Shown here: piece after piece, positions 6,618-42,376 of the stretch
How positions within the stretch are numbered: position 1 is the first letter of the stretch
Layout of the letters: every line of letters starts with the position of its first letter
From: an uncultured Candidatus Saccharibacteria bacterium
Lineage (GTDB): Bacteria > Patescibacteriota > Minisyncoccia > Minisyncoccales > GBS-2
DNA: 64,000 nucleotides
Direction of reading: 5' to 3'
Assembly: GCA_964593405.1 (NCBI GenBank)
Contig: CAZQIO010000001.1
Span: 2,263 to 66,262, forward strand
Program-made: the position numbers and the translations under genes
Notes under the pieces: model-generated
Databases searched by the model: none
What the model was told of the DNA's origin: nothing
The model's input: only the letters and a program-made list of their open reading frames with translations

Positions 6618-6625
6618 AATAAAAA

Positions 6626-6886
6626 ATGGAAGAAATTACAGAGGGAAAATTAATCGGTAGAGTAACCCATTATTTTGGGAAAATTGGGGTTGCGGTCATT
6701 GAACTTCAAGACACATTAAGAGTTGGAGATAAAATAAGAATTGTTGGGGGAGAAACAGATTTTTCTCAAACAGTAGAATCGATGGAAATCGAACATCAAA
6801 AAGTAAATGAAGCAAAGGCTGGAGATTCGGTCGGACTTAAGGTTTTGCAAAAAGTTAGGGAAGGATACAAAGTTTACAAATTGTGA
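6626..6886 (+). CDS. small beta-barrel protein (EF-Tu domain-2-like fold?)
   Basis: 86-aa ORF with an alternating hydrophobic pattern (GRVTHYFGKIGVAVIEL...VGDKIRIVG). Function unknown. Confidence 0.3.
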   Translation: MEEITEGKLIGRVTHYFGKIGVAVIELQDTLRVGDKIRIVGGETDFSQTVESMEIEHQKVNEAKAGDSVGLKVLQKVREGYKVYKL

Positions 6887-7296
6887 CAAAAGAAGTTATC
6901 TTGAAACTTTTTTTATCTCTTTTTTTGGGAGCTTTAGTAGGTTTAGAGAGAGAACTTAAAAGAAAAGGTGCTGGCCTCCAAACCTACTCTTTAGTTTGTT
7001 TGGGTTCTTGTCTTTTTTCAGTAATTGCTTTTTCTTTGGCCAAACTCAAAATTATCGATCCTTCTGTGATTTTAATGGCAATTGCTGTTGGTATGGGTTT
7101 CATTGGTGGGGGTGCAATTTCTAGAGGAGAAAATCAAATCGTCGGTTTGACAACCGCTGCCGGTCTTTGGGCAGTTGCTGCAATAGGATTAGCAGTTGGA
7201 GCAGGATTTTATTTTTTGGCATTTTTGGCAACCATTTTTGTGCTGATAATTTTGGCTGGTTTTGGCAGGCTAGAAGAAAAAATCTTCAAAAAATAA
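6883..7296 (+). CDS. MgtC/SapB family membrane protein
   Basis: GLERELKRKGAGLQTYSLVCLGSCLF motif and four TM helices. Confidence 0.7.
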   Translation: MTKEVILKLFLSLFLGALVGLERELKRKGAGLQTYSLVCLGSCLFSVIAFSLAKLKIIDPSVILMAIAVGMGFIGGGAISRGENQIVGLTTAAGLWAVAAIGLAVGAGFYFLAFLATIFVLIILAGFGRLEEKIFKK

Positions 7297-25707: not shown

Positions 25708-26397
25708 ATGAGAAAAGTTTTATTGTCAATTTTAATTGGAGTTTTGATTTTGGCAATTTCAAATCCAATCGCTGCCAAGTCCAAAGGAAAAAAAATTAAT
25801 GAGCCAGTAGATAAGATAACTTTCATTCACTACAAAGGAGGAAAAGTAAGAGTGGAAGGTAAAGGAGCAAAAGCTCAAACCTGTTATAAGTTGTTGGGGG
25901 TAAAATGGAGAAATCTGCCGATAGATTATGTGATTCAAACTGGAATTCCAGAAAGTGCCATTTCCTTGGCGACTGCTGAATGGGATAGGTGGACCTCTGC
26001 TAATTTATTTGGAAATTTTGCTACAGATTCTTTAGCCGATTTTGATGAAGATTCACCAGATGGAAAAAACGAGTACAGCATTGGCAATTATCCAGAAGAG
26101 GGTGTAATAGCAGTGACAAACATTTGGTACACTATTCGTTCAAAACAAATTGTTGAATACGACGTGCTGTTTGACACTGATTATTTATGGGGAGATGCGA
26201 CAATCAACCCTGAAGTAATGGATTGGCAAAACATTGCCACTCACGAAACAGGACATGGTTTGGGTCTTGGCGATGTTTATCAAACTCTTTGCTCTGAGGT
26301 GACAATGTATGGATATTCTGATTATGGAGAGACAAAGAAAAGAACTCTTGAAACACCAGATATTTTAGGACTTCAAAAACTCTACGGCGGACTATAA
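25708..26397 (+). CDS. secreted metzincin-like Zn metalloprotease (HExxHxxGxxD, snapalysin/matrixin-like)
   Basis: Signal peptide, HETGHGLGLGD zinc-binding motif, and a downstream Met-turn-like MYGY. Confidence 0.6.
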   Translation: MRKVLLSILIGVLILAISNPIAAKSKGKKINEPVDKITFIHYKGGKVRVEGKGAKAQTCYKLLGVKWRNLPIDYVIQTGIPESAISLATAEWDRWTSANLFGNFATDSLADFDEDSPDGKNEYSIGNYPEEGVIAVTNIWYTIRSKQIVEYDVLFDTDYLWGDATINPEVMDWQNIATHETGHGLGLGDVYQTLCSEVTMYGYSDYGETKKRTLETPDILGLQKLYGGL

Positions 26398-26489
26398 AAT
26401 AGGGTTTATTTGATTTTTTGTTTGCCACCTAGTTTCTCTTTGCGATTTTTTCTTTTTCATTATCTGACCAATGATCATTTTTTAAAATT

Positions 26490-27047
26490 ATGAAAAAAGA
26501 GAATTTTAAATTGCTTGAGAAAAAAGGTGCGGTTTTAGTCATTGTCGATGTTCAGGAAAAATTGCTGCCAAAAATCAAAGAAAAGGGCAAGATTTTAAAA
26601 AACATTTTAAAACTGGTTAAATTTGCAAAAATCATTAACCTTCCGATTGTTTTGACTGAACAATACCCAAAGGGCCTGGGGAAGACAGTCAATGAAATTA
26701 GAAAAATTTTACCAAATATAGAGCCAATTCAAAAAACAACCTTTAGTTGTTTTGGCAGCAAAAATTTCAAAGAAAAATTAAAAAAGCTTAAGGTCTCAAG
26801 TTTAATCATTGTTGGAATAGAAACTCACATTTGTGTTCTTCAAACAGCACTCGAAGCAATCGGTCGTTTTAAAGTTTTTGTTGTAGCCGATGCCACTTCT
26901 TCCCGTTCGAAAAAAGACTGGCAAATTGCTATTGAAAGAATGAGAGAGGAGGGAGTGACAATTTCTTCAACAGAAATGCTAATTTTTGAATTGTTAAAAG
27001 ATACAAAAGAAAAAGAATTCAAAAAAGTTTTGGAATTGTTGAAATAA
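26490..27047 (+). CDS. isochorismatase-family cysteine hydrolase
   Basis: VLVIVDVQ (Asp), Lys, and a VGIETHICV (Cys) triad arrangement. Confidence 0.7.
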   Translation: MKKENFKLLEKKGAVLVIVDVQEKLLPKIKEKGKILKNILKLVKFAKIINLPIVLTEQYPKGLGKTVNEIRKILPNIEPIQKTTFSCFGSKNFKEKLKKLKVSSLIIVGIETHICVLQTALEAIGRFKVFVVADATSSRSKKDWQIAIERMREEGVTISSTEMLIFELLKDTKEKEFKKVLELLK

Positions 27048-27060
27048 AAAGAACGTCTTA

Positions 27061-27130
27061 TTATAATTCACTAATGAGATTTACTGTTTCAACAAAAGGA
27101 TTTTGCGATGTAATAGATATTACCTTTTAA
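27061..27130 (+). repeat. remnant copy A of the yjbQ promoter-proximal 5' end (TATAAT box, ATG, 18 codons then stop)
   Basis: TTATAATtcacTAATGAGATTTACTGTTTCAACAAAAGGATTTTGCGATGTAATAGATATTAC is ~90% identical to 41041-41090 and shares the upstream TATAAT-N4-TAATG with copy B. Confidence 0.6.
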
Positions 27131-27184
27131 AATAAATTAAGTCTAAAGTTTTATACATCCAGTGCGTAAAAACAACCAAAATAA

Positions 27185-28276
27185 ATGTACCATCTTTTCA
27201 GGAAATTGATAGACATAAATTTATTATATTTAAGCAAATATTCTCGCTTTTTTTTAAATTTTATTCAACCAAGGCCGATTGAGGCCAGCTTTAAGGTAAC
27301 TGAGAGGTGCAACAGCCGGTGCATTACCTGTAATGTCTGGAAAAATGTTCCCAAGAATGAATTGACTACTCAAGAAATAGAAAATGTTTTTTATCAGTTA
27401 AGAGAGATAGGAATAAAATATATCGGTTTCACTGGTGGAGAATGTTTGTTAAGGGATGACATTGGTGAATTGATTAAAAAAGCCAAAAAAATATTAAGAG
27501 CAAAAGTTTATATAATCACAAATGGTATATTGTTAGAAGAAAAAGCAAAGATTCTTTTGGAACAGGGAGTAGATTATATCAGCGTTTCCCTTGATGGCAT
27601 AGGAAAAACTGATGAAAAAATAAGAGGAGTCCCCGGTCATTACGAGAAGGTCATAAGAGGAATTAAACGATTAAGAAAATTGAGTTCGGGGAAATCGCCT
27701 CCCATTAATATAGGCACCACCCTTGTCAAACTTAACCTTCACGAAATTCCAAAATTGATTGAGGTTTGTAAAAAATTAAATGTAACTTGGTCGTATAATT
27801 TATTAGATACAAGCCTTTATTTCTTTAAAGGTATTGATACTTCCCAACTATTGGTCAACGATGAGAATTTAGTGGATAAAACGATCGATTATTTATACGA
27901 AATAAAAAAGAAGGACCCCGAAATAATTAACATGAATTTTAAGAGTTTGGAATTTGCCAGAGAGTATCTTAAAAATAAAAAGCCCAATTTCCATTGCACT
28001 ATGGGGTATCTGAGAGTTTTGATAGATTCAAGTTTAAATGTCTATTCAGGTTGTTGGGCTCTTCCTCCGATGGGAAACTTAAGAAAAGAAAATTTAAAAG
28101 ATATTATTAGATCGCCAAAATATAAACAAAGGACAAAACAAATGTTTGATTTAAACTGCCCAAGATGTACTTGCGGTTATGCATTCTCTCTGGCGATTAA
28201 CTTTTTACCTTCAAGTTTGATTGAAGCAATCAAAAATTTTAAGGGGTATAAAACATATCTAAAAATGATAGTGTAG
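27185..28276 (+). CDS. radical SAM protein with C-terminal SPASM/twitch-like Cys cluster
   Basis: CNSRCITCN (CxxxCxxC), GGEC, and a C-terminal ...CTMGY...GCW...CPRCTCGY. Confidence 0.7.
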   Translation: MYHLFRKLIDINLLYLSKYSRFFLNFIQPRPIEASFKVTERCNSRCITCNVWKNVPKNELTTQEIENVFYQLREIGIKYIGFTGGECLLRDDIGELIKKAKKILRAKVYIITNGILLEEKAKILLEQGVDYISVSLDGIGKTDEKIRGVPGHYEKVIRGIKRLRKLSSGKSPPINIGTTLVKLNLHEIPKLIEVCKKLNVTWSYNLLDTSLYFFKGIDTSQLLVNDENLVDKTIDYLYEIKKKDPEIINMNFKSLEFAREYLKNKKPNFHCTMGYLRVLIDSSLNVYSGCWALPPMGNLRKENLKDIIRSPKYKQRTKQMFDLNCPRCTCGYAFSLAINFLPSSLIEAIKNFKGYKTYLKMIV

Positions 28277-28924: not shown

Positions 28925-28970
28925 TTATAATGGATTAATGCGCTTTACCGTTTCAACAAAAGGATTCGTT
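28925..28970 (+). repeat. remnant copy B of the yjbQ promoter-proximal 5' end
   Basis: TATAATggatTAATGCGCTTTACCGTTTCAACAAAAGGATT matches the first ~30 nt of yjbQ (41041-41070), then diverges. Confidence 0.55.
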
Positions 28971-29154
28971 GTGAAAACACCAGAATACTCGTTAAAATAA
29001 GACTTCCTCCAAGGAGCGAAATGACCAAGAAAAAGCTGGCAGTTAAGGCTTAATTTTTAATGGGATGTCATCCATATTTTTTGGCATCATGGACAATATC
29101 CCAGCAAATGGCTTAAATTTGAGCTGGAAGTAATGATATAACTGGGTTTTAAGT

Positions 29155-30103
29155 TTGGAAATCACTTCAATCGCAGAACAGTTATTATTCACCGGCGTCA
29201 GGATAGAAAGTATAGTGGTCGAAAATAAACGAAAAATCGGGACAGGTTTTATTCTTGATTACAGAATGGAGGGCAAAAGCTATCCGTTCATCATAACAGC
29301 AAAGCATATTATTAGCGGAGCCGAAGAAGGAGTATTAACTTTTATTAAAGGCAAAAGAAACATACCGCTTCTTGGAGAGGGTTATCAGTTAAAAATTAAG
29401 GATTTTGAGAAAATTTAGTTTAAGCATCCAAGTGAAAACATTGATGTAGCAGTATCACCTTTTGTTCCTATTCTTAACCATATTGCAAATCAAGAAATCC
29501 AAGTATTTTTTAAATCAATACCTAGCGATTTGATTCCCAAAAATGCACAACTAAAGGAATTTGACGCGATAGAGGATATTCTCTTTATTAGGTTATCCCA
29601 TCGGACTATGGGATGAGAAAAATCTTCTTCTTATTGTAAGAAGAGGTATTACCGCAACTCTAGTATTTGTAAACTTTAATGGTGAAAGGCAATTTTTAAT
29701 CGACGCTTCTATCTTTCCGGGTTCTAGTGGAAGCCCTGTTTTTATTTATGACAGAGGAATTTATTGGAACAAAAAGTCAGAAGCTACGGTTGGTGGTCAC
29801 AGAATCTTCCTTTTAGGAATTCTTTCAGCTGTTTTTCGGATGCCCGATAGAGGAGAATTGATCTTTCCAAGCGAACGAATACACACCCTTACAGAGCATG
29901 GCGAAGCAGTGTTTTTTACGAATGAAAAAGTGAGGATTAAAGTAAATCAACTAGCAGACTTAGGAATAGTTTTTAAATCAGAGATAATAATTGAAACTAT
30001 AAACAAGTTTCTGAAAGGAAACGTAATGCATGCCTATGGCGCTCCACAATATTTCGCATACATAATCGATAAACACTTACATAATAGCCTCCTAATCCTC
30101 TGA
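29155..30103 (+). pseudogene. trypsin-like (S1/Trypsin_2) serine protease, disrupted by an in-frame TAG (29416-18) and a frameshift near 29590
   Basis: Catalytic triad segments lie in three frames or pieces: ITAKHII (His), NIDVAVS (Asp), and IDASIFPGSSGSPVF (Ser, GxSGxP). Confidence 0.6.
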
Positions 30104-30273
30104 ATACAAATCATGGAACCATGAATAATATCTCACCGAGTGAATTAAGTTTGAACTGGAAGTAAAAGTGTGATGTTATAGCAGCATCTTTTAGCATAGA
30201 AAGAGATGATTAAATAGCTAACTAAAAAATTATTCTTCTTTAACTGTCTCCTTAACATAAGCGATTTTGGGTT

Positions 30274-30471
30274 TTATTGTTTCTTTTCTTTCTTCTTTAC
30301 AAGCCAGTAGACTATTCCAGCGATTATCCAGCATATTATCGTGCTTATTGGCGTGGAGGAACAGTGAGCGTAGTGGCCTAGCAGGCAGGATCTACTTGCG
30401 GGGGCGGGGATTAATGTTGAAACCCCTAAAACAATAAATATTACTATTAGAACCCAGTGATACCCCTTCAA
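30274..30471 (-). CDS. small two-TM membrane protein (hypothetical)
   Basis: 65-aa ORF with two hydrophobic helices and a Lys-rich tail. Confidence 0.25.
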   Translation of the reverse strand: MKGYHWVLIVIFIVLGVSTLIPAPASRSCLLGHYAHCSSTPISTIICWIIAGIVYWLVKKKEKKQ

Positions 30472-30866
30472 TAAATTTTCCTCCTATATATCGGATGTTA
30501 TTATTTTAACTCAAGATGTTTATAAAATTTTGGATGATAACAAGGATTAAATCTGCATTTCTCACACCTTTTAATGGAGTTGGTATAATGCCGCGGAATG
30601 CTCAAAGGTTATTGATAAGATTCTAGAGATGTTGATGGATGAAACGCTACCCTCAAAGAGAAAATAGAGAGATGGAATAATCTTTCAGAGAAGTTTGCCG
30701 AGTGCATAGGTGGGCGTTTAAAGGAGTTAGTAAAGGAAATGAAGATAACTGAATTAGAGGTGCAGAAGCTAGCTCAGGAAATTTTAGAAGAAGCAACCAT
30801 ATACGCTAAACATCATCGTGAAAATTAATAGTTTATCAATTTTAAGAATAAAAGCCTGAATAAAAT

Positions 30867-31795
30867 TCAATTTAAAACTTTAAGCCCAGCCTTATCATAG
30901 ATTTCCTTCAGTTTCTCTGGGCTGAAATCCGTATAATGTCTTGCAAGTACGCTTCTTGGAACCCTTCCGCAGAAGGCATCAACATATCTGTCCGGGACGC
31001 CTAGTTTTCCCATTTCGCAGGCAAACCATTCCCTCAATATTTGAGGCGTAATGCTTAAACCAGTTTTCATTCTGGCATCGAGGAATATCCTGTGCTTTTC
31101 GTTCGTCTTCATCGGGAAGAGTTTATCGCTCTTTTTTAGCCTAATCTTTAGTCATTCCTTTAAAGGTTTTTCAGCCTCTTCGTTGTAGAAGGTTATGTAG
31201 CTTCTTTTTGTTCTGGAATTATGTCGGGGAAATATCGTTCTCTTTTCAAAATCGATGTCGCTTAGCTTCAACTTTAGGGCTTCGCTTCTCCTTAATCCAG
31301 AGGAAGCTAATAAAAGAAAGATCGCCTTTTCTCTTAAATCCTTCAAGGCTTGGTAAAATCTTTGAAGCTCTTCTTTTGAAGGGACCTTTTTAATCGTTGG
31401 GCTTGGATTTGGGAATTTGAAGCTTGGACCAAGTCTGGCCTTCCTAAGAAATCTCTGAAAAACCTCTACAAAGCCTTCAACATGTTGGCATAGCTATACG
31501 GATTTCCATCCCTCAAAGTTAAAAGGAAACTCCTAATATCTCCAACGCTCGGGAAGTCAATGCCATTTTTCTCTATCCAAGCCAAAAACTTCCGCACATT
31601 GTAGATGTGTTGCCCCACCGTCTGTTTCGAAAGCTGAAGGTTAACCAAGCAAAATTCTGCGAATTTCCTCAGCACTTCCTGGAAATCAGATATTCTCTCA
31701 AAGTTATTCTCCTCATTCTCCATTCTCCCTTCAAATTGTCCCAATTTGAATTCTAAGCCATCTTTGAGCCTGTCACGCTGAGGACCCGGGTTCAA
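30867..31795 (-). pseudogene. tyrosine recombinase/integrase (XerC/D-phage integrase family), one frameshift (~31470-31495) and one in-frame TGA (31152-54)
   Basis: N-terminal SAM-like domain (ISDFQEVLRKFAEFCLVNLQLSKQTVGQHIYNVRKFLAW). Catalytic box I LLLASSGLRRSEALKLKLSDID. Box II ITPQILREWFA...RSVLARHYTD with the Tyr. Pieces 2 and 3 are in the same frame across the TGA. Confidence 0.75.
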
Positions 31796-31813
31796 ATCCC
31801 GGCGGCCACACCA
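31786..31813 (+). other. orphan tRNA 3' fragment (T arm + acceptor 3' strand + CCA): candidate att core
   Basis: CCGGG-TTCAAAT-CCCGG, then CGGCCAC, then A-CCA. No complementary 5' acceptor strand (GTGGCCG) lies upstream. Abuts the integrase N-terminus. Confidence 0.55.
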
Positions 31814-32061
31814 TTCATCACTGTTTTTTTGTCTCCTTTTTTCCGTAAAGAGGTCTTAATTGTTTTATTGCCATTTTCAAAGCATTTTCACAAGTCCTTG
31901 AAATATTCAAGCCCAATTCCCTTGCCTCTTTAACAACATCCTCGTCGATATAGATGGTTACACTTATTTGCTTACCCAATTTTATTTGCCTCCATTTGGA
32001 ATTATGTGGAAATCAAATTTAAGGATTTCGCATGCAAAGCCATGCGCCCTGAGGATGGAGA

Positions 32062-32859
32062 ATGGCGATGGCGAGAATAGTGAGAATAAAGTTGTATAAG
32101 AATTCTCTAGGAAATTTTTATGAAGAGGAGAAAGAGATGTCAGAGGCTGTTGCGCCGAGAAGGTTTGTCATTCCGAGGCTTTTGGCTTGGGTTATGGTTT
32201 TTGCTGGAATAGGCATATTCGTTATCGGTATTCCATTTCTTATGTATAGCCTTTTCATGTTTAGTTTTGTTAGGCGCTTCGACCCTACCGGCATTATCCT
32301 GATGATCGTTGGTGCAATCGTCTTTTACGTTGGATACAAAAATACGGGCTTTATACTGACTAAGGAAGAGATAGTAGATAGGTGGAGCGTTTTAGTTGAG
32401 AACGGCAAGGGAAAGGCAAACGAGATCTTCGATGATACCGAAGGCTTCATTAGGAAAAGCCAAGCTCCAAGGATTGCTGTCGAAAGGAGGGAAATTGTCC
32501 CTACGATAACAAAGGACATCCTGGGCGTGAGGAGAAGGTTTTTGGTCGTTACTAAACTTGAGAATCCAAAGCTTTTGAATTACAAGACCTTCATTTGCGC
32601 TAGGGATTATGGAAACAACCTCGATGTTTCGTGGTATTTAACGTATAAAATGGGCTTTTTCGAAGCTTTATTGAACCTATTATTTCTCAGAGGAAGATTT
32701 GTTCCAAAACTTGACTTGTTCGACGAGCAGGATTTAAGAGCTTATATGACAAACGTCCATCACTGCCTTTTAAAAGCCGTTGAATCTTTAATGAAGAGCT
32801 TGGGGCAAGACTTTTCTAAGGTTGACAGAAAATCTATAGGTTTCTTGGGCGTTAGTTGA
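32062..32859 (+). CDS. membrane protein (two N-terminal TM helices + ~180-aa soluble domain), hypothetical
   Basis: Hydrophobic segments LLAWVMVFAGIGIFVIGIPFLMYSLFMF and GIILMIVGAIVFYVGY. 4-nt overlap with the downstream ATPase. Confidence 0.4.
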   Translation: MAMARIVRIKLYKNSLGNFYEEEKEMSEAVAPRRFVIPRLLAWVMVFAGIGIFVIGIPFLMYSLFMFSFVRRFDPTGIILMIVGAIVFYVGYKNTGFILTKEEIVDRWSVLVENGKGKANEIFDDTEGFIRKSQAPRIAVERREIVPTITKDILGVRRRFLVVTKLENPKLLNYKTFICARDYGNNLDVSWYLTYKMGFFEALLNLLFLRGRFVPKLDLFDEQDLRAYMTNVHHCLLKAVESLMKSLGQDFSKVDRKSIGFLGVS

Positions 32860-34142
32860 TGGGAATTCTTGATAGGCTGCTTAGGCGGAAAAAGAAGGAA
32901 AAAGAGGAGGTTGAAGTAGAGGAGAAAGTCGAAGAAGCTCCAGTCGAAGTTGACGAGGGAAATGTTGTAAACATTGGCTGGTATTGGTCTGAGCAAAAGC
33001 AAGAGTGGCAGATGGCAAAGATTAAAGAGGAGGATAGGAAAGTTCACTTTTACGTTGTCGGTGCCTCTAGAACTGGAAAGTCAAAGTTCCTTGAGTTTTT
33101 GATTAGACAAGACATTGAAAAGGGAAATGGCTTCGGAGTAATCGACCCTCACAGGGATTTGATTGATGATATTAAGGCTTATCTAACATTAGCCCTGCCG
33201 AAAGAGGAGTTGGAAGAGAGAGTTGTAGTAATAGACCCAACAGATGAGAGGTATACCGTCGCCTTCAACCCTCTTGAGAAGATCAAGAAAATGTTATCTG
33301 CCGAGATAGCAGCCGAGCTCGTCGAAGCCTTCAAGAAGATTTGGGATTATGGGAGCGCCATCGAAACTTACGGTTGGGGTGCTAGGATGGAGGATTTGCT
33401 TAGGAACTCGCAAATAGCCCTAATAGAGGCTGGACTCACGCTATGCGACCTACCACGTTTTCTAATAGAGGATGACTTTAGGGAGAACGTCTTGGAGAGG
33501 GTTGAGCATCCAATAGCAAAGAGGTATTTCCAGAGGTTTAATGCCTTAGCCCCAAAAACGAGAGAGGAATGGATGGAATCTACACTGAACAAAGTCAATG
33601 CTTTTTTATCAGATGATAGGATCAGGGAGATATTCTCATTCCAAAAATCTTCTTTCAATTTCAGGGAGATAATGGATAATAAGAAGATTTTGTTAATTAA
33701 GCTTGATAAGGGAAGGCTGAAAGAAAATGCCGACTTGCTGGGTGCGCTATTGATGACGAAGATCAGGATGGCTGCGTTCTCGAGGTCAAACGTTCTAAAA
33801 GAGAAAAGAGTCCCATTCTACCTTTACATTGACGAGTTTCAAAACTTTGCAACCAAAACATTCATTGAAACTCTGAGCGAGGCTAGAAAATATGGCTTAT
33901 CACTTATAATGGCCCATCAGAATCTTTCTCAGTTGCCGAAGGAATTGCAAGATTCAATTTTAACTAACTGCGGAATCCAATGTTACTTCAAGGTCTGTAG
34001 AAGAGATGCTGAAATATTAGCTAAAGAAGCTTTTGAGACGAGTGGTGTTGAGGTAAAAGCAGTAAAACTTTCGAGGGAGTACTCTGATTACGATTGGTTC
34101 ACATATTCAGAGGATTGGGAAAAGTACATTCAAGAGCTATAG
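32856..34142 (+). CDS. FtsK/HerA/TraG(VirD4)-superfamily P-loop ATPase (DUF87-like), no TM segment
   Basis: Walker A VVGASRTGKS. Walker B LYIDEFQNF. C-terminal RKYGLSLIMAHQNLSQLP signature shared by T4 coupling proteins and HerA. Confidence 0.6.
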   Translation: MMGILDRLLRRKKKEKEEVEVEEKVEEAPVEVDEGNVVNIGWYWSEQKQEWQMAKIKEEDRKVHFYVVGASRTGKSKFLEFLIRQDIEKGNGFGVIDPHRDLIDDIKAYLTLALPKEELEERVVVIDPTDERYTVAFNPLEKIKKMLSAEIAAELVEAFKKIWDYGSAIETYGWGARMEDLLRNSQIALIEAGLTLCDLPRFLIEDDFRENVLERVEHPIAKRYFQRFNALAPKTREEWMESTLNKVNAFLSDDRIREIFSFQKSSFNFREIMDNKKILLIKLDKGRLKENADLLGALLMTKIRMAAFSRSNVLKEKRVPFYLYIDEFQNFATKTFIETLSEARKYGLSLIMAHQNLSQLPKELQDSILTNCGIQCYFKVCRRDAEILAKEAFETSGVEVKAVKLSREYSDYDWFTYSEDWEKYIQEL

Positions 34143-34194
34143 CAGTTGCCAAACAGATGTTTTTGGGCAAAACACAAAATTGAAGGTGGTGTAA

Positions 34195-35103
34195 TTCCAC
34201 TGTACACTGTGGGAAATTAGGCAAGCTTATGAGGAGTTCGGTGTAGAGAAAGAGGTTCAGGATAAAATTCTGAGTGAAGTTGTCTTCAGTAAAAGGTATC
34301 TTTTAGAGAGAAAGCCCAAGGAAGTTGAAAAGAAGGTTAAGGAAAAGTCTAGTGAGGAAGAGAAGCTCACAGCCTTAGAGGAAATTATTGCAACATTAAC
34401 ACCTTTTGAGAAGGCGATTCTATGGGCTATAGGTGTTGGAAACTACAATTCAGCAGACATATACGAAGAGGCGAATAAGAAACTCAAAGAATGGGGTTGC
34501 TCAACCAGAAAATACTCAGAGTTTAAGAAGAAGTTTTATGAGTTTGCCAAACTACCTAAAGAGGGAGGTAAAGGATTAATAGAGTTTAGAAAGCTTGGCA
34601 GGAGCTTTTGCTATTGGCTAAGTAAGTGGGGAGAAATTGCATTTGCTGAAAAGTTTGGAATACCTTCTGATAGGGCGATAAACGAGCTTGGAGGTGGAAG
34701 AAAGCCATCAAAAACCGTAGCCTTGGAAGTCATAAAGGAGTGGCTTGAACCAAATGGATACAAGGTTAAGGCTGAGGAGGAAATAAAAACCGATTTGACC
34801 GAGAGAGGCAGAGGCTACACTGATTGGGTTGCCGAGAAAAATGGTGAAGTTTTGAGGATTGAGATTGAGCATAGAAGCCAAAAAGAGCAAGTGGAGAGGA
34901 ATATAAGGAAGAACTTAGAGTACTCAGATACACTCTACATCATAGCGAGCGATGAAACGGCGAAAAGAAAAGTTATTCAAGTTGCTTTGAGAACATTATT
35001 TAGGCTGAGGAAAGAAAAACCCGATGAAAAATGTGTGGTGAAGGTAGCTGACATTGAAGAACTGAAAAGGAATAGTTGGAATAAGTGGTTCGAGATAAAA
35101 TGA
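34195..35103 (+). CDS. winged-helix + PD-(D/E)xK nuclease-like protein; open frame of ~300 codons with no ATG/GTG/TTG before 34723
   Basis: Frame opens after the TAA at 34192-94. C-terminal GYTDWVAEKNGEVLRIEIEHRS resembles a PD-(D/E)xK core. The track only reports the TTG at 34723. Start lost, or non-canonical. Confidence 0.4.
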   Translation, partial: FHCTLWEIRQAYEEFGVEKEVQDKILSEVVFSKRYLLERKPKEVEKKVKEKSSEEEKLTALEEIIATLTPFEKAILWAIGVGNYNSADIYEEANKKLKEWGCSTRKYSEFKKKFYEFAKLPKEGGKGLIEFRKLGRSFCYWLSKWGEIAFAEKFGIPSDRAINELGGGRKPSKTVALEVIKEWLEPNGYKVKAEEEIKTDLTERGRGYTDWVAEKNGEVLRIEIEHRSQKEQVERNIRKNLEYSDTLYIIASDETAKRKVIQVALRTLFRLRKEKPDEKCVVKVADIEELKRNSWNKWFEIK

Positions 35104-35152
35104 AGGAAAACCTTATATGAGGAAAATCCACCTTTTCTATAAGTGAGAAAAA

Positions 35153-35518
35153 TTGGAGCGTTCAACTAGGAAATATAAGGCAACAAAGTTACCCGTTGAA
35201 GTATTTGATGAAGCCGAGTTAGTGAAAGCTAAGCTAATTATGAATAGGGAGGCTTTAAAGAAGCTTCCTTCAGAGGGTGCGAACCCAGCTAAATGTCCCC
35301 TTGGCGGTAATGATTTGAGGGTTGCCGAAGTTAAAGTGGCGGTAAAAATGGTCTCGTGTCAACGTTGCGGTTACAAACAACCGTCCCTAGACGTATCCAG
35401 CATTGGAAACGATCCTGCGGCAATCGCTGGAGCGTTAGGTCTGGGAGTTCTAGCGGGTCTCGGTATAGCTGCATTGCTATATTTAATATTTAGCGGTGAA
35501 AAGAATGAGCGAAGTTAG
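35153..35518 (+). CDS. small Zn-ribbon protein with C-terminal TM anchor (hypothetical)
   Basis: CPLGG...CQRCGY (two CxxC-like pairs), then AAIAGALGLGVLAGLGIAALLYLIF. The 35153 start is TTG; the first ATG is at 35240. Confidence 0.35.
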   Translation: MERSTRKYKATKLPVEVFDEAELVKAKLIMNREALKKLPSEGANPAKCPLGGNDLRVAEVKVAVKMVSCQRCGYKQPSLDVSSIGNDPAAIAGALGLGVLAGLGIAALLYLIFSGEKNERS

Positions 35519-35895
35519 GATAAAAGTCCAGGCAGATTTGAATATCATTAAAGAATTACTGATAAGAGAGGGTTTTACGATCCGGGCATTTTGCAGACTT
35601 GGAAAGAAGGCCAGGTATTTGGATTAGCTAAGCCGTTAAATTATCTAATCGAAGTTCACGTTAGGGGTTTTGCGGATAATACTTTAGATGCCGAAATAGA
35701 GTTATCACGTGAATATCTAGAACATCCCTACGACGGGAAACCTTACTACGGTTTTCTAATCGAGAACTCTAACTAAGTGGAAACCCATGCTTTTTGTACT
35801 ATGTATCATTTGTGGAATATGTGGATTTTTTGCAGTTTTAGAAAGATTCGGCTCGAAGGATAATTCATTGACAAAATTAGAAGAGGAATGATACA

Positions 35896-37179
35896 ATGGA
35901 TAGAATGTTTGTGAGATTTTTATCAGAAATAAAGGAACCAAAAGCTTCAGAACTTGGAGGAAAAGGCTATTCATTAGCTGTTTTAATGAATAACGGATTT
36001 AACGTCCCGAAAGGCTTTGTCATAGTTTTAGATGCGTTCTTTGAGCATCTTAAAAAGAACGAATTGATGGAGAAAGTTAGAGAACTAGTAGCTAAAATCA
36101 ACGAGGGGAATTTTCAAAAAAAAAGCAGAGAAATTAAAGAGTTAATATTGAGCGGAGCAATACCTGAGGAAATTGCCTTAGAGGTAAAAAATGTCTTAAA
36201 TAAATTAAATGTTCAGTATGTTTCTGTTAGGTCATCTGCTGTTAGCGAGGATAGCTTAAAAGCTTCATCTGCGGGAATGCATGATACATTCTTGAATGTA
36301 AAATCAGAACCAAAACAGGTTTTAGAAAATGTGAAGAAGTGCTGGGCATCTTTATTCAATGAAAGAGCGATAATATACAGAATTAAGAAAAAGCTGCCTC
36401 ATTTAGAGGGAATGGCGGTTGTAGTTCAAGAAATGATACCAGCTGAGGTTTCTGGGGTCGCCTTTACTGCCCACCCAACGAACAAAAAGTTTTTACTTAT
36501 TGAGGCTTGCTATGGAATTGGTGATATGGTCGTGGGTGGTAAGGTGGAGCCAGATGATTATGTGGTGAATAGAGAAACTTTAGAAATAATAGAAAGAAAG
36601 ATTGGCAGGAAGGATAGAATGAGCGTTATTGAAAATGGAAAAATTAAAGTTATTGATGTCGAAAAGAAACTTGCTGAAAAACAGGTTTTATCTGATAATG
36701 AGATAAAAGAAATCGCTGAAACTTGCCTAAAAGTCGAAAAAACATTTAAATATCCTCAAGATATTGAGTGGTGTATCTCCAAAGATTTTATATGGATTCT
36801 ACAATCACGAACAATAACCGCGACATCATTGCTTATTGGAGAAAAAACAAAAATAAAACCGATTTTGAGCGGATTAGGAGCAAGCCCCGGTATAGTTAAA
36901 GGGAAAGTAAAAATTATTTTAAGTCCGAGGGAAGTTAATAAAATGAATGATGGTGAAATATTGGTTACTGTAATGACTAATCCACTATATGTTACTGCAA
37001 TACAAAAAGCCAAAGGAATAGTTACAGACGTTGGTGGCATACTTTCTCATGCAGCTATTGTAGCAAGGGAGCTTGGAATTCCTTGTGTAGTTGGAACTGA
37101 AAAAGCGACAAAAATACTGAAAGATAATATGGAGGTTATTGTAAATGGTACAGAGGGTAAAGTTTATGCACCAGACTGA
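35896..37179 (+). CDS. PEP-utilizing-enzyme family phosphotransferase (PPDK-N ATP-grasp + phosphohistidine 'mobile' domain, no PEP/pyruvate TIM barrel)
   Basis: ELGGKGYSLAVLMNNGFNVPKGFVI (PpsA N-terminus) and C-terminal GGILSHAAIVARELGIPCVVG with the swivel His. Confidence 0.7.
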   Translation: MDRMFVRFLSEIKEPKASELGGKGYSLAVLMNNGFNVPKGFVIVLDAFFEHLKKNELMEKVRELVAKINEGNFQKKSREIKELILSGAIPEEIALEVKNVLNKLNVQYVSVRSSAVSEDSLKASSAGMHDTFLNVKSEPKQVLENVKKCWASLFNERAIIYRIKKKLPHLEGMAVVVQEMIPAEVSGVAFTAHPTNKKFLLIEACYGIGDMVVGGKVEPDDYVVNRETLEIIERKIGRKDRMSVIENGKIKVIDVEKKLAEKQVLSDNEIKEIAETCLKVEKTFKYPQDIEWCISKDFIWILQSRTITATSLLIGEKTKIKPILSGLGASPGIVKGKVKIILSPREVNKMNDGEILVTVMTNPLYVTAIQKAKGIVTDVGGILSHAAIVARELGIPCVVGTEKATKILKDNMEVIVNGTEGKVYAPD

Positions 37180-38260
37180 TGATTTAATAACTGAATTATT
37201 CAGAGTTACAGGAGAGGCAATCTACGATACAGATATGCAACACGGGGATGGTAGGGATTATTGGCCCTTTCATCCAGTATTTTTAGATTCTCTTGTTGCT
37301 CCAATAGTGTTTAAAGAAATTTTAAGGATTATTGAAACATTAGAAAACAAAGGCTACACCCTAACAGACATTGCAGAAACAGTATACAGTCCAACTAAAA
37401 TAGCTAATTACCAATATTTGTGGCCAGAAAAAACAATCAAATCTTTAACCTATGACGAAAAATACAAGCTCGCAAAATATTTCGTTGAGTTACTAACGAT
37501 TTTGAGAAATGGTGAACCTTTTTGTGAGAAAGGAAGAAACTTGGTATGGACCAGAAAGAACTTAATCCAAAATATAGAAAAATATAAGAAAGATTTTGTA
37601 AGTGCTAAACAAAACCCTGAAATGGCTCAACTTTTGTCGAAGCTAGAAGGAATTCTAGTTTCTTATGCGGAAGCGCTGTACTATTACATGATTGACTTAT
37701 CACGTATGATGCATGGTCCTTATTCACTTGAAAATGGATCTACTGTTTTTGTAAAGGAATATCTTCACTTAAAGGCTGGAGAACTTTGGGATGTGGTTTC
37801 AGATTTCCCTTTTGACCATTTTAAAGAGATCGGAATTTATCAAGGCATACAAATAACTACTTTCTTTATGGGACATACACACTCAAATCCACCTTTCCCA
37901 AAAGCAATAGATAAATTCGTTATAATCGTAGATGATAAAGTAATAAAAAATATGGACGAGCTGAGAAATTTATATGAAAAGGTAAAAGAAGTAACAGAAA
38001 GAGCAGCTCGATGTATAGCAGAAAAGTCTGGCGATGAAGCTTTTCTTCTTAAGAAGGGAATTGATATGTTTTTCTATCCATTAAAACCTCTCTACAAGGA
38101 AATAGGAGAGAACTGGAAAGATATACTTCCACAAGCATATAAGTTTGCATATAATGTGAAAGATAAAATAAAAGTTCCTGGACCCTGGGGTGATTGGAAT
38201 AAAGAGAAAGCAGTAAGTCACCTTCTAAAACTAATGGATTTTCGGAGGAAAGCAAGATGA
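37166..38260 (+). CDS. hypothetical protein, translationally coupled to the phosphotransferase (ATGcaccagacTGA overlap)
   Basis: 365-aa ORF starting MHQTDDL. No motif recognised. Confidence 0.4.
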   Translation: MHQTDDLITELFRVTGEAIYDTDMQHGDGRDYWPFHPVFLDSLVAPIVFKEILRIIETLENKGYTLTDIAETVYSPTKIANYQYLWPEKTIKSLTYDEKYKLAKYFVELLTILRNGEPFCEKGRNLVWTRKNLIQNIEKYKKDFVSAKQNPEMAQLLSKLEGILVSYAEALYYYMIDLSRMMHGPYSLENGSTVFVKEYLHLKAGELWDVVSDFPFDHFKEIGIYQGIQITTFFMGHTHSNPPFPKAIDKFVIIVDDKVIKNMDELRNLYEKVKEVTERAARCIAEKSGDEAFLLKKGIDMFFYPLKPLYKEIGENWKDILPQAYKFAYNVKDKIKVPGPWGDWNKEKAVSHLLKLMDFRRKAR

Positions 38261-38484
38261 TAACAGAGTTCTGCAGTTACAAGCAAACTCTAATAAATAT
38301 GATGAAGATTATCCGTAAACCTATAGAATCTTTTGCTATTGATACAAACACCACTTACCTTTACTTTGAAAAAACGCTTTACCTCCAATAGGTCCAACCA
38401 ATTCTAGAGAAAACTATATGATGCCTTTTCTTATTTTAGTAACCAACCCCCTGTTCTCATGTCTTAAAGCATGGTGGATGTACG

Positions 38485-39183
38485 ATGTGCGGGTATTCAA
38501 ACCTAGCTACCTTTAAAGATAATATTACCGGAGATGTGGTATACGAACAGTTTAGAAGGGGGTTTGAGATTATCAAAAAGATTCCTCACCATGAAATGGT
38601 TGCTATTGGAACCGCTGGCTCATTTTTAGACCCACATGAAGTTCCATACGAAATCCAAGCAAAAATAATAAAAGAACTTAACTCTTCAGGTGATATATAC
38701 TACATAAACATTGAAATAAGAGCAGAATATGTGACTAAAGAATCTCTTGAAAATTTGGTAGAAGTAGTCGATGATCCACATAAGTTAGCTATTGGAATCG
38801 GTTTAGAAAGTTCAAATGAGCTTATAAGAGAGTTATGTGTCAATAAATGTCTACCTATCGCCTCTTTCATCCGAGCTAAAAGATTGCCTGAAGAATTGCG
38901 AAAAAATGTACTTATTGCGACTCCAAGATTGCCTAAGCCCTTAGAACTTAAAGTAAGTGACGGTGCTCAGACGGCAATAGAATTATTAAATGAATATAAA
39001 GGCACACTAGACTATAATTATATCGATGCTATAGATGCCCTTTCAAGCTCTGATAAGAGAAAATGGTATGAGAATTTGGAAAGAGAAATGAACAACTCTG
39101 ATTCAATAGAAAAACCAATATCTACGAACTTTAGCCGTTGGCTGGAGGCGTGGAAAAATGAGCATGGAAGAATATTTCAATAA
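38485..39183 (+). CDS. hypothetical protein; in-frame upstream extension carries a C-x8-C-x2-C cluster
   Basis: MCGYSNLATF... Upstream in frame, PTPCSHVLKHGGCT runs back to a TAA at 38440. Possibly a truncated metallo or radical-SAM-like enzyme. Confidence 0.3.
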   Translation: MCGYSNLATFKDNITGDVVYEQFRRGFEIIKKIPHHEMVAIGTAGSFLDPHEVPYEIQAKIIKELNSSGDIYYINIEIRAEYVTKESLENLVEVVDDPHKLAIGIGLESSNELIRELCVNKCLPIASFIRAKRLPEELRKNVLIATPRLPKPLELKVSDGAQTAIELLNEYKGTLDYNYIDAIDALSSSDKRKWYENLEREMNNSDSIEKPISTNFSRWLEAWKNEHGRIFQ

Positions 39184-40286
39184 AAATAAAGAAAAACTTA
39201 AAGAGGTTTACGAGCTATTCCGGAATACAGATTACGGCAGGGAATTAAATCTACCCCCAGAATTTAATGATTACAACACTTTTAAAACTTTACCCCTCAT
39301 AGATCCACGAAAAGTAGATTTTAAGCGACTATTTGTTCCAGGCGATAATTTGTGGTCTTTTATATCTAGTGGAGTGTCGGGACATAGGAAGATGGTAATG
39401 AGCGATATAGGAACTATTACTAAGTATCCAGAAGAAATGGATGAAATCTTAAGAACTAATACATCTGTATTTCTCCACAGTAAGAGGAGAAAAGGTGAAA
39501 GGAGATGTACTCTTCATAATAGAATATCCCCTGATGGCAGAATGGATTTGTTATCAATTAGAAAAGGCTATAGAAGCAGGAAAAATATTTCCCGGGAATA
39601 TTAGGAAAAAGAAAGTATATTTCGAATTAAGTGGAGAACCTGTTACTGAGGAACAAGTCTGTAACATTGTAAAAAGATTAGAGAAAATATTTCAAACAGA
39701 AGTAGAATATTCTATTACATACGGCTCTACTGAGATTGGGCTTATAGGAACGTATATTCCAACAATTCATGGTTCCAAAATTAAATATGAAGTAATTCCA
39801 TCGCTTTTTGTAGAAATAGTCGATGGGGAAATAATCATTACTCCTTATAGGAAACAAGGGACAATATTATTTAGATACAAAACCGGAGACAAGGGCAAAC
39901 TATTTTTTGAAAATGGTAAACCATTCTTGAATGTAATTGGGAAATCTGAAAGTGAGGGGATTATGTATGTTGCAGGTGTTCAAGTATGCATCCCAGAGCT
40001 AGTGGCAGAAATAGAAAAAATAGCAAATTTTCCAATCGGAATAAAGGTCATCAAAAAGAAGGATCGGCCGAAAGGAGTATGCGAACTTGATATTAAAATT
40101 CATATACCTCGGCGTGATGCTTTAAGTAATAGTTTAAAAAATGCCATAACAGAAAAAACTAAACAGTTCATTACAGATTCTGCTGTTTTGTCGGTGGAAA
40201 ATCATTTAGGAATAGTGAAAATAAATATTCATTATTCTTCTGAACCTATAAAAAAAAGGTTCATTATTGAAAACTTAAAGGCATAA
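39158..40286 (+). pseudogene. PaaK/F390-synthetase-like adenylate-forming enzyme, frameshifted near 39495-39604
   Basis: ANL motifs SSGVSGHRKMV (A3, P-loop-like) in the first piece and YGSTEIG (A5) in the second. Confidence 0.5.
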
Positions 40287-40449
40287 ATCAAGATAATGGA
40301 TGCATAATTCCTTATCAATGAACTCATTGCAAAACTCTTAGCGAACGTTTAAACTGTTAGCTTAAGCAATGAGGTTTCGCAATTGGCTCAATAATAAAAA
40401 CTTAGAATACAGAAGCTATTCTAGAAGAACGAAAAATATTAAACCATTG

Positions 40450-40535
40450 CTTTGTGGCTTAATTATGTACCTTCATCAACTTTCACATCAAATCCTATCA
40501 TCAACCTATGTGGGGTTGAGAGTTAAGCCACAAAG
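40450..40535. repeat. 13-bp perfect inverted repeat CTTTGTGGCTTAA ... TTAAGCCACAAAG with 60-nt spacer
   Basis: Arms at 40450-40462 and 40523-40535, inside the 750-bp noncoding right end of the island. The track ORF at 40369..40572 that spans it is probably spurious. Confidence 0.45.
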
Positions 40536-41040
40536 CTTAATATTCCACTTTTCCAAATATTGCCTCTCTTAACTTTCCAATTTAATACCCTCAAATATTG
40601 ATGCGTCAATGTTAAGCTATCATATACTTTCTTGCCTCTGAGGGTATGGAGCGATTTCTAGTGAAGCTTGGGTTTTATTTTAATACCCCTATCTTATTAT
40701 TCGGTAAACTGGTATAGCTAAAATCTCATCACTTTCAAGCCTTTCAACGTCTATTGCCTTGAAAGCATAGAGCTTCTTTCCAACTTCAAAGAATAGTAGA
40801 TCCCAATAATAGCCTTTCCTAATCCATATTACTGGTCTCTGGCTCAAAATGGCATTTTTCATTTTTAAAATTGCTCTACAATCAGCGTATTTCGTTCTAT
40901 ATTTTGAGTCCTCTTGCTACTATACACTACTCTTACAGTGAAGTATCTTCCCTAAAGCATACTATCTGAAGGAAAGAAATAGTTGGCTTTAATCGCTGAA
41001 GGCTTTTTATTTTTGGGAAAATAAATTATACTGAAATAAT

Positions 41041-41451
41041 ATGCGCTTTACTGTTTCAACAAAAGGTTTTTGCGACATAATTGATATTACTTCAAGGGTT
41101 CAAGAGGCGGTCAAAAAAGCAGGGGTTAAAGATGGTTTTTGTATTGTCTCTTGCCCAGGATCTACGATTGGAATTACAACGATTGAGAATGAACCAGAAC
41201 TTTTGAAAGATTTCAAAGAACTTTTGGAAAAATTGATCCCCTCTGACAAAGAGTACCGCCATGACAAAGTTTGGGGAGAAACCAACGGGTTTTCTCATTT
41301 AAGGTCTGCTTTGATTAAACCTTTTTTAACAGTGCCCATCGAAAATGGAAAATTAATTTTGGGCACCTGGCAGAATATTGTTTTTATTGATTTTGATTCA
41401 AGGCCAAGGGAAAGAGAAATTTTGGTTAAAGTTTTTGGACAAAGGTCGTAA
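41041..41451 (+). CDS. yjbQ: YjbQ/UPF0047-family protein (integration-target gene; intact copy)
   Basis: MRFTVSTKGFCDIIDITSRV...GTWQNIVFIDFD family signature. Confidence 0.7.
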   Translation: MRFTVSTKGFCDIIDITSRVQEAVKKAGVKDGFCIVSCPGSTIGITTIENEPELLKDFKELLEKLIPSDKEYRHDKVWGETNGFSHLRSALIKPFLTVPIENGKLILGTWQNIVFIDFDSRPREREILVKVFGQRS

Positions 41452-41452
41452 A

Positions 41453-42376
41453 ATGAATCAAAAAATAAAAATGTCAGAAAAAATTTGGAAAATTTTTGGC
41501 ATTTTTGGAATAGTTTGTTTGGTTGGAATTTTTCTTGGAGGAATTTTGATATCTTTGGGAGGAATAAAAAGAAAGACAATGACCCCAGCTTATTTTGAAA
41601 AAGTTGAAACACCAATGGGAATTGGCGGTGGGCTAGAAAAAATCAATTTACCCTCTCCTGAAACACCACCTCCTTCTAATCTTGAGAAAGAAATTCCTTC
41701 AAGAATGATCATTAAAACTGGCTGGTTAAATTTAGTGGTTAAAGATATTGGAGAAGCGATAAAGAAAATTTCGAAATTTGTTGAAGAAAATGGCGGTTGG
41801 GTTGTTTCGAGCAATGTTTATGAAACAGAGAAAATTCCTTCTGGAAGTATTACTGTCAGGGTGCCTGCAGAAAAGTTTGACCAGGCTAAAGATTATTTTA
41901 AAAGTTTAGCAGTGAGAGTGAGCAGCGAAAGCACTCAATCTCAAGACATCACCGAAGAATACGTCGATTTACAATCTAATTTGAGAAATTTGGAGGCAGC
42001 GGAAGAGCAACTTTTGGAAATAATGAAGAGGGCAGGAAAAATTAACGAGGTTTTAGATGTTTACCGAGAATTGACCAACATTCGCCAGCAGATAGAAAAG
42101 ATAAAAGGGAGAATGCAGTATTTGGAGCAATCTGCCAAAATGTCATTAATCACTGTTAATTTGGCCCTTTCTGAAGAGTTGCTGCCTATTCCACCAGGCG
42201 AAAAATGGAGGCCAAAGTATGTATTTTTGCAAACCTGGAAAAGCGTTTTGAATTTCTGGAAAGGCTTTTCTTACTTTTTGATCAAATTGGTAGTTTGGTC
42301 TCAAGTTTGGATTCCGACTTTGATTTTGGTAGCAGTTTTCATCAGAATCTGGAGGAAAAAGAAAAGAAAAGTTTAA
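41453..42376 (+). CDS. membrane-anchored coiled-coil protein (DUF4349-like)
   Basis: N-terminal TM, central coiled coil (LQSNLRNLEAAEEQLLEIMKRAG), C-terminal TM. Start at the ATG MNQKIKM. Confidence 0.4.
   Translation: MNQKIKMSEKIWKIFGIFGIVCLVGIFLGGILISLGGIKRKTMTPAYFEKVETPMGIGGGLEKINLPSPETPPPSNLEKEIPSRMIIKTGWLNLVVKDIGEAIKKISKFVEENGGWVVSSNVYETEKIPSGSITVRVPAEKFDQAKDYFKSLAVRVSSESTQSQDITEEYVDLQSNLRNLEAAEEQLLEIMKRAGKINEVLDVYRELTNIRQQIEKIKGRMQYLEQSAKMSLITVNLALSEELLPIPPGEKWRPKYVFLQTWKSVLNFWKGFSYFLIKLVVWSQVWIPTLILVAVFIRIWRKKKRKV

Follow-up and report, generated by a model that had tools for sequence, protein, structure and literature searches.

A 12.1-kb decaying island with archaeal-type backbone genes at the 5' end of yjbQ in a Parcubacteria bacterium

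The locus described here raises the question of how a bacterial chromosome came to hold 12.1 kb of DNA that differs in composition from its surroundings and in which at least seven genes are broken. This discrete insertion occupies positions 28967-41040 of a 64,000-nucleotide stretch of contig CAZQIO010000001.1 (assembly GCA_964593405.1), called the window throughout, and it combines the features by which genomic islands are recognized, namely deviant composition, flanking repeats, absence from related genomes and a recombinase gene. We consider it likely to be a decaying integrative element with an archaeal-type backbone, inserted at the 5' end of yjbQ in a bacterium of the Parcubacteria (candidate phyla radiation, CPR).

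Boundaries of the insertion and the empty site in relatives

Two compositional signals distinguish the island, of which G+C content is the weaker. G+C is 0.3725 in 28971-41040 compared to 0.340 in each flank. The original prediction had described a foreign block of about 12 kb with higher G+C; tetranucleotide usage is indeed foreign across the entire island, while G+C is raised (0.40-0.41) only at ~30.5-35.9 kb and falls to the background level (0.344) in 36.0-41.04 kb. The tetranucleotide distance to the host mean was 11.0 +/- 1.2 for 5-kb host segments (maximum 12.6) and 46-50 for island segments A, B and C, which places the latter ~30 standard deviations off the host; a uniform k-mer profile across the window was not seen. 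The deviation vectors of the three island segments point the same way (r = 0.83-0.93), mainly because the host is poor in tetramers containing TA and rich in runs of A or T while the island is not. Outside 28967-41040 the host has 1.6 TATA per 1000, compared to 4-7 in the island, and host sequence is very rich in AAAA/TTTT and AATT; restriction avoidance or mutational bias may lie behind this. A host-versus-island log-likelihood profile (400 nt) switches at ~28.8-28.9 kb and, very sharply, at 41.0 kb. The fraction of sequence in open reading frames (ORFs) of >=100 amino acids is 0.607 for the island and 0.946 for the flanks, where the minimum in any 12.1-kb window is 0.899.

A direct repeat of 29 nt flanks the island; its two copies, ATGCGCTTTACCGTTTCAACAAAAGGATT on the left and ATGCGCTTTACTGTTTCAACAAAAGGTTT on the right, are identical at 27 of 29 positions. 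No match as good was found in 100 shuffles. The longest exact run common to both copies is 14 nt, and both mismatches are synonymous third positions. The features at and near the two ends are:

27074-27123, + strand: third, older copy of the yjbQ 5' end, ~50 nt, reading MRFTVSTKGFCDVIDIT and then a stop, between isochorismatase and radical SAM genes
Upstream of the left repeat, + strand: promoter-like TTGCCG-17-TATAAT, the native yjbQ boxes retained
28938-28966, + strand: attL-like left copy of the repeat, corresponding to the initial 29 nt of yjbQ and now starting a 20-codon stub
41041-41451, + strand: intact host yjbQ (UPF0047), whose start (41041-41069) is the right direct repeat and where host composition resumes

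Apart from the boxes upstream of yjbQ, promoter and terminator scans gave nothing informative. When the repeat core (a 20-mer) was scanned against JGI metagenomes, 24 matches were returned, of which six are yjbQ starts of related bacteria and the remainder appear chance-like.

Related genomes show the locus without the insertion. In three contigs of related hot-spring Parcubacteria (L047, L048 and L054) the genes DUF72a-DUF72b-PAP2-yjbQ are contiguous, with 68% amino acid identity to the window for PAP2 and 80-84% for yjbQ, and a fourth contig (L063, GBSOD1_14) has the order DUF72b-yjbQ-MFS-PolX. Each of these four contigs has a single copy of the yjbQ start and no island genes. A further relative (L042, PolX 91% identical in amino acids) retains the right-hand order yjbQ-MFS-PolX-NUDIX-L20-L35-IF3. 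Since PAP2 and yjbQ are contiguous in relatives, the 12.1 kb is an insertion between them, and the empty site would read TTTACCGTTTCAACAAAAGGTTTTTGCGAC directly 3' of the PAP2 spacer.

The yjbQ stub at 27074, which is more diverged than the other copies and precedes the radical SAM and PAP2 genes, suggests that insertions have repeatedly used the 5' end and upstream region of yjbQ. Related genomes lack three genes of 25708-28276, which encode an M10 peptidase, an isochorismatase and a radical SAM protein; the M10 and radical SAM genes upstream of yjbQ are intermediate in composition. On the other side, a DUF4349 gene (41393-42376) lies between yjbQ and the MFS gene; it is also present in L055 and L066 and missing in L063 and L042, and is a further insertion or deletion adjoining yjbQ.

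The flanks, on the same contigs as the junctions, encode SmpB, IF3, L20, L35p and GreA, and the host is therefore bacterial. The best named relatives of its arginyl-tRNA synthetase (ArgRS) belong to Ca. Nealsonbacteria (65% identity), the Patescibacteria group (60-63%) and Parcubacteria (63%). Judged from the flanks and ArgRS, the host is a Parcubacteria/CPR bacterium and not the archaeal-like host entertained in the original prediction.

An archaeal-type backbone

The backbone of the element lies in the middle of the island:

30867-31795, - strand: tyrosine integrase pseudogene of the archaeal SSV type ("suicidal"), catalytic RHY region present
31765-31813, + strand: tRNA-Asp(GTC)-like 3' half (anticodon arm through CCA), lying inside the integrase frame, in its 5' part
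31818-31979, - strand: 53-amino-acid ORF of the CcdA/ribbon-helix-helix (RHH) type, matching the N-terminal Int(N) domain of unsplit homologues
32062-32859, + strand: partner protein, 265 amino acids, membrane-type, intact, in relatives always upstream of the coupling protein gene
32856-35103, + strand: pseudogene of ~740 amino acids, a fusion of a type IV coupling protein (T4CP, VirD4/TraG-like), a winged helix-turn-helix (wHTH) and a restriction-endonuclease-like domain, with lesions at 34140 and ~34205-34212

With its N-domain part, the integrase pseudogene spans 30867-31979. Its catalytic motifs align with those of homologues, and it is 65-69% identical to proteins labelled as from "archaeon", Aenigmatarchaeota and Bathyarchaeota, all of which carry PF16795 (Phage_integr_3); the C-terminal fragment of the window integrase alone matches this family with E 5e-6 and 26.9 bits, against a Pfam gathering score of 27. 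Unsplit homologues of 350-383 amino acids consist of CcdA-like, SAM-like and PF16795 domains in one ORF that runs through the att site. In the window, likewise, the tRNA-Asp-like half sits between the RHH-like N-domain and the SAM-like domain, and 31765-31813 is the element's own attP, unrecombined. An attP inside the integrase gene, with the gene split on integration, is tied to PF16795 and known only from archaea according to a 2021 review (PMC8371274). The parts of the window integrase are contiguous and internal, rather than divided between the island ends as Int(N) and Int(C); no tRNA gene adjoins the island, whose ends are the yjbQ repeats and not tRNA fragments. Because the integrase is unsplit and the tRNA-Asp-like attP is intact, the element was not integrated through its own att site.

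The integrase is dead. The original prediction had listed a TGA and a frameshift; both are present (the TGA, at 31154, aligns with W in homologues, and the frameshift is a 1-nt loss at ~31422, between LVQ and SFKFP), but the list was incomplete, as there is also a TAG at 31468, where homologues have R or K, and probably an additional frameshift between the RHH-like ORF and the rest of the gene.

The T4CP matches PF02534, PF10412, PF12696 and NF045973 (VirD4-like). Its ORF (32856-34142) has thousands of homologues, and those that are 79-84% identical are ~740 amino acids long, the combined length of this ORF and a supposed separate wHTH-nuclease gene at 34195-35103. What had been reported as a wHTH-nuclease gene without a start is thus the C-terminal ~300 amino acids of the fusion, cut off by a GAG to TAG change at 34140 (homologue consensus E) and the frameshift at ~34205-34212; DNA identity to relatives of ~75% continues unbroken over 32.74-35.04 kb. 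An AlphaFold model of the C-terminal 302 amino acids has a mean pLDDT of 70. In Foldseek it resembled winged-helix proteins (TubR, MarR-type) and nucleases of the restriction-endonuclease fold (Bax1, AF1548, RecU) only weakly, with no match reaching E <= 0.001, which is compatible with the wHTH-nuclease label of the original prediction.

Related elements share a gene order that begins with a tRNA gene, a CcdA/RHH-like ORF reading into the tRNA, the partner of 177-265 amino acids and the T4CP fusion, and continues with variable cargo, genes of 116 and 78 amino acids, a Cas4-like nuclease and replication-type genes. The cargo of these relatives includes restriction-modification genes, TPR proteins, DUF2254 and others. 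An integrase split at a tRNA gene was seen in relatives L007-L011 and L039/L037. In one contig labelled "MAG: archaeon" (a metagenome-assembled genome, MAG), the attL is in a tRNA-Arg gene and a 33-nt copy of its 3' end, the attR, lies 15.1 kb away and adjoins an Int(C) of 275 amino acids with 68% identity to the integrase of the window.

Among GTDB species genomes, every full-length T4CP relative of >=64% identity is archaeal (Methanodesulfokora, Bathyarchaeia, Methanoperedens, Sulfolobales and Thermoproteota). The closest relatives (79-84%) occur in Korarchaeota, Bathyarchaeia and other archaea; that of Ca. Methanodesulfokora washburnensis (79%) is on a 147-kb contig with archaeal ribosomal genes. 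Bacterial relatives are ~50% identical and do not have the C-terminal half. The archaeal source raised in the original prediction is accordingly supported for the element core, where the relatives of both T4CP and integrase are archaeal. In Ca. Methanodesulfokora washburnensis a related element (L008, 8539-9312) lies in a tRNA-Ser gene directly after the gene for ribosomal protein S19, a site inside or at the edge of a ribosomal protein gene cluster.

The island ORFs gave no matches to capsid, portal or terminase genes, and a scan of IMG/VR returned one match with 22% identity, so that the family is essentially absent from that database. A prophage was rejected because structural genes are missing and IMG/VR is essentially without relatives. 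No Pfam or NCBIfam match to a relaxase or to VirB4/mating-pore proteins was found among the island ORFs or in the gene lists of relatives; an integrative and conjugative element (ICE) was rejected since relaxase and VirB4 were not found, although a T4CP, now broken, is present. A circle opened beside the 116-amino-acid gene should have left remnants of the 78-amino-acid and Cas4-like genes at the left end of the island, but none were found there.

Origin and route of entry

The backbone comprises an integrase with an RHH/CcdA-like N-domain and internal attP, the 265-amino-acid partner, the T4CP fusion, a cargo slot and the 116-amino-acid gene, and it belongs to a very conserved family with its nearest members in archaeal chromosomes. 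In these archaeal relatives, the "suicidal" integrase recombines its internal attP with a tRNA gene, and its own gene is thereby split into Int(N) and Int(C). In the window, a plasmid-like element may instead have been captured by recombination within the 14-29 nt identical to the yjbQ start, a site that would have been used at least twice given the older stub at 27074. The recombination could have been catalysed by some other recombinase or by the element's own integrase acting off-target; relaxed-specificity recombination has been reported for the SSV-type integrase class (PMC8371274). The differences between the repeat copies fit equally well with a crossover within the shared GTTTCAACAAAAGG of two similar sequences or with a duplication that later drifted. 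Since its arrival most of its genes have been disabled by nonsense substitutions and 1-nt insertions or deletions, presumably in neutral decay.

Several observations weigh against this account. The donor is judged from the taxonomy of the element's relatives. The JGI 20-mer scan yielded no copy of the yjbQ-like repeat beside element genes, and no candidate recombinase for the yjbQ site was found. Homologues of the cargo and the protease (listed below) are missing from related elements, and the island may be a mosaic. All assemblies probably derive from one shared read set with ~10x coverage. In addition, some members of the element family are in MAGs labelled bacterial: a WOR-3-labelled contig (L067) holds element genes only, and a contig of a MAG labelled "bacterium" (L024) encodes XseA and HtrA but also an archaeal-type histone.

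Such labels also count in favour of the serious rival to an archaeal donor, in which the family is cross-domain or native to CPR or other bacteria, the donor was another bacterium and yjbQ is a regular attachment site, which would make the island a decayed bacterial genomic island of an ordinary kind. More distant T4CP-plus-partner pairs are common in bacteria (~50% identical in Patescibacteria, Bacteroidota and Armatimonadota), the 371-amino-acid cargo protein has its closest homologue on a contig with CPR-like gene content, and the repeat agrees with the yjbQ allele of the host itself, a hint that the element had resided in this lineage before. However, all close relatives that are physically linked to cellular marker genes are archaeal, while the family members binned as bacterial have either no linked cellular genes or mixed signals. 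The bacterial T4CP relatives are without the wHTH-nuclease half, the embedded att resembles the tRNA att of archaeal elements, and the integrase class has been reported from archaea only (PMC8371274). A bacterial donor is therefore the alternative to be taken most seriously, although we consider it improbable.

The contig L024 also carries, at 4101-6897, an unsplit 343-amino-acid integrase (CcdA-like domain, tRNA-like linker and catalytic domain) directly beside xseA/xseB. As a second bacterial case this contig was set aside as ambiguous, with XseA/HtrA and an archaeal-type histone on the same sequence.

Within the preferred reading, of an archaeal-type element captured at yjbQ, it is conceivable, though unlikely, that the transfer from archaeon to CPR bacterium was direct, through physical contact of the Parcubacterium with an element-carrying hot-spring archaeon, and that the capture at yjbQ reflects a host-side DNA-uptake system.

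Integrity of the assembly

A further alternative is that the locus is an assembly artefact, in which either an archaeal element was falsely attached to CPR contigs or the left and right parts of the island were falsely attached to each other at 32.5-32.7 kb. The sample, sequenced in run DRR163687, is from a hot spring in the Kirishima region, Kyushu, Japan (PMC10762115), and was available as two metaSPAdes contigs (ERZ1669417) and as Logan contigs of the same run. NODE_123 (coverage 10.46) begins in the host, crosses the left junction and stops at window position 32529, while NODE_149 (coverage 10.15) begins at 32694, crosses the right junction and continues into host sequence; both values are contig averages covering host plus island portions. 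A Logan contig matches 32711-40482 with 100% identity, also at the lesions. As long single metaSPAdes contigs cross each junction, positions 28.97 and 41.04 kb are not assembly joins, a possibility that the original prediction had raised.

The sole assembly break is internal, at 32530-32710 inside the 265-amino-acid gene, where the window sequence bridges the gap. The ORF is colinear with its homologues on either side of the break, with a constant offset, and this, together with the adjacency of PAP2 and yjbQ in relatives, indicates that both halves are one insertion at one locus. The artefact reading can point to the break, which is shared by both public assemblies, to a Logan contig that ends within the left repeat at 28963 and to the low coverage. 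Against it, both junctions are inside long contigs, the longest exact identity of the repeats (14 nt) is too short for a false join, and a live archaeal element would not bear so many lesions. Chimerism at the junctions was rejected on contig continuity and synteny, and an artefact of either form is very improbable.

Both metaSPAdes and Logan break at 32530-32710, where a related element variant in the metagenome may have tangled the graph. The Logan contig that stops at 28963 (L003) ends at the last base common to the left repeat and the uninterrupted yjbQ; this end is compatible with, but not proof of, a graph branch between island-bearing and island-free cells.

Gene decay and the remaining cargo

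Outside the backbone, the island contains the following features:

29082-29133 and 30114-30165, + strand: two 52-nt direct repeats, 77% identical, read as C-terminal remnants of paralogous ORFs, that bracket the protease pseudogene
29155-30103, + strand: Trypsin_2 (S1) protease pseudogene, in-frame TAG at 29416 and frameshift at ~29590
35153-35518, + strand: 121-amino-acid ORF, intact, at the start of the variable cargo slot
35496-35776, + strand: small ORF of ~90 amino acids, split by one frameshift
35896-38260, + strand: intact cargo pair, a phosphoenolpyruvate (PEP)-synthase-like protein of 427 amino acids and a 371-amino-acid protein
38257-39183, + strand: RaSEA-like radical SAM pseudogene (TIGR01210), start-frame stops at 38389, 38419, 38437 and 38440
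39158-40286, + strand: pseudogene of an adenylate-forming enzyme (PaaK/AMP-ligase-like, weak match), frameshift at ~39475
40689-40996, - strand: remnant of the family's conserved 116-amino-acid Zn-ribbon gene, 77-79% identical in nucleotides to relatives; 39 nt are deleted and the frame has changed

At least seven genes are broken: those for the integrase, T4CP fusion, protease, radical SAM protein, ligase-like protein, small ORF and 116-amino-acid protein. The original prediction counted at least five interrupted genes, and all five of its listed breaks were found; its list had passed over the radical SAM gene and the 116-amino-acid gene. There are at least six frameshifts, without a common motif, and in-frame stops of all three kinds, with TAG the commonest (29416, 31468 and 34140). 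The four stops of the radical SAM gene are best read, from the frames involved, as two probable frameshifts ~60 nt apart, one of which adjoins a C5 run. The intact ORFs of the island are the 265-amino-acid partner, the 121-amino-acid ORF, the PEP-synthase-like protein and the 371-amino-acid protein. Given ~12-17 lesions over 12.1 kb, the chance of a lesion-free 2.4 kb is an estimated ~0.02-0.07, a weak hint of selection on the intact cargo pair.

If the lesions were sequencing or consensus errors, arising from mixed variants of the element in a low-coverage metagenome, the element itself could be functional. The ~10x coverage, the abundance of the family in hot springs and the C5 run beside one frameshift would fit; however, three assemblies show exactly the same bases at the lesions, ORF coverage is 95% in the 52 kb of flanking sequence assembled from those data, and neither the 39-nt deletion in the 116-amino-acid gene nor the missing remainder of the backbone can be base-calling errors. 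It is therefore hard to credit this explanation. Least credible of all is that the genes are unbroken and are read by means of stop-codon recoding, programmed frameshifting or a combination of the two, which was rejected even though TAG is the most frequent in-frame stop: TGA and TAA are in frame too, TAG stands for E in one protein and for R or K in another, the frameshifts share no motif, island ORFs terminate in TGA, TAG and TAA, no suppressor tRNA is present, and the host itself uses all three stops (27 TAA, 12 TGA and 7 TAG). The preference of the original prediction for decay of a horizontally acquired element over recoding is thus borne out by the three stop types, the differing aligned residues and the accompanying frameshifts, as is its statement that the host uses TGA as a stop.

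The far end of the island retains the layout of the family. The 116-amino-acid remnant marks the far side of the cargo slot, so that 35.15-40.3 kb occupies that slot. The PEP-synthase-like protein consists of the ATP-grasp and swivel-His domains alone and matches positions 4-462 of a profile of 798. Its 371-amino-acid neighbor belongs to a rare family with 279 representatives, the best 53% identical. The homologues of the cargo carry no taxon names in the records. In L068 (9664-12620) a homologue of the latter lies between separate PEP-utilizers and PPDK_N genes, and this placement indicates that the two intact cargo genes probably work together; on gene order, it suggests a possible undescribed three-part dikinase-like system. 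The radical SAM match to TIGR01210 (E 2e-29) is below the curated cut-off. At 40449-40536, in non-coding DNA 3' of the ligase-like gene, there is a 23-nt inverted repeat (83% complementary, 42-nt loop), inside which the Logan contig end at 40482 falls.

The repaired protease matches Trypsin_2 with E 8e-7, and the 52-nt repeats around it are read as stubs of further lost ORFs. Since L042 has a Trypsin_2 gene beside yjbQ, a displaced host gene was considered for the protease and rejected, as the two proteases are unrelated. Outside the island, the precomputed annotation of the isoleucyl-tRNA synthetase (1159 amino acids, 49374-52853) places a His_Phos_1 Pfam match inside the synthetase domain.

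Significance

Integrases with an internal target site were held to be exclusive to archaea by the 2021 review (PMC8371274), and the window has a dead one in a bacterial chromosome. This "suicidal-integrase" backbone type is archaeal and has not been reported from bacteria; if the transfer from an archaeon was direct, the island would be the first record of such an element in the chromosome of a bacterium. With the two junctions present and the empty site known from relatives, it is physical evidence, and of an unusually clean kind, that an entire mobile element has crossed between domains. The locus also records the fate of such an arrival, with non-canonical integration, rapid loss of the mobility genes and a two-gene dikinase-like cargo left intact. 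A dead genomic island is already known as a kind of feature and, apart from the cross-domain aspect, a decaying one is ordinary; what is new is the host, the unsplit integrase and the reused site at the 5' end of a protein gene. As the spring of the host is rich in archaea and the family is abundant among the archaea of hot springs, the donor could be named from the nearest intact copy in the sample, and with it possibly the organism on which the Parcubacterium lives. If transfer was indeed direct and by contact, the dead element is a tracer of the symbiont's archaeal partner.

Comparison with known systems

Compared to elements of the SSV type (SSV1/2, pTN3 and pT26-2; PMC8371274, PMC7253208), the island likewise has a PF16795 integrase with a tRNA 3' fragment inside its frame, and its relatives integrate in tRNA genes and are split into Int(N) and Int(C) as SSV-type elements are. 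In the window, however, the host is bacterial and the integrase is an unsplit pseudogene that is not at a tRNA gene. As far as could be established, the island backbone (T4CP-wHTH-nuclease plus partner) also differs from those of SSV, pTN3 and pT26-2.

The integrated elements of Thaumarchaeota and other archaea with VirD4-like ATPases (PMC6563490) share with the island an integrase, a plasmid-like character and a VirD4/TraG-type ATPase, and both they and the island family have tRNA targets and variable cargo (restriction-modification, toxin-antitoxin). Unlike those cryptic elements and ICEs, neither the island nor the relatives examined have VirB4/mating-pore genes. Bacterial ICEs and integrative and mobilizable elements likewise combine an integrase with a type IV coupling protein; in contrast to them, relaxase and mating-pair formation genes were not detected in the island, and its T4CP appears to be fused to a wHTH and a restriction-endonuclease-like domain, as the weak fold matches suggest.

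The degraded islands and cryptic prophages of bacteria show the same deviant composition, direct repeats, integrase pseudogene, absence in sisters and accumulated lesions. The island at yjbQ differs from these in its archaeal-type backbone and in its insertion at the 5' end of a protein gene, where the gene start has been rebuilt and two successive stubs have been left behind.

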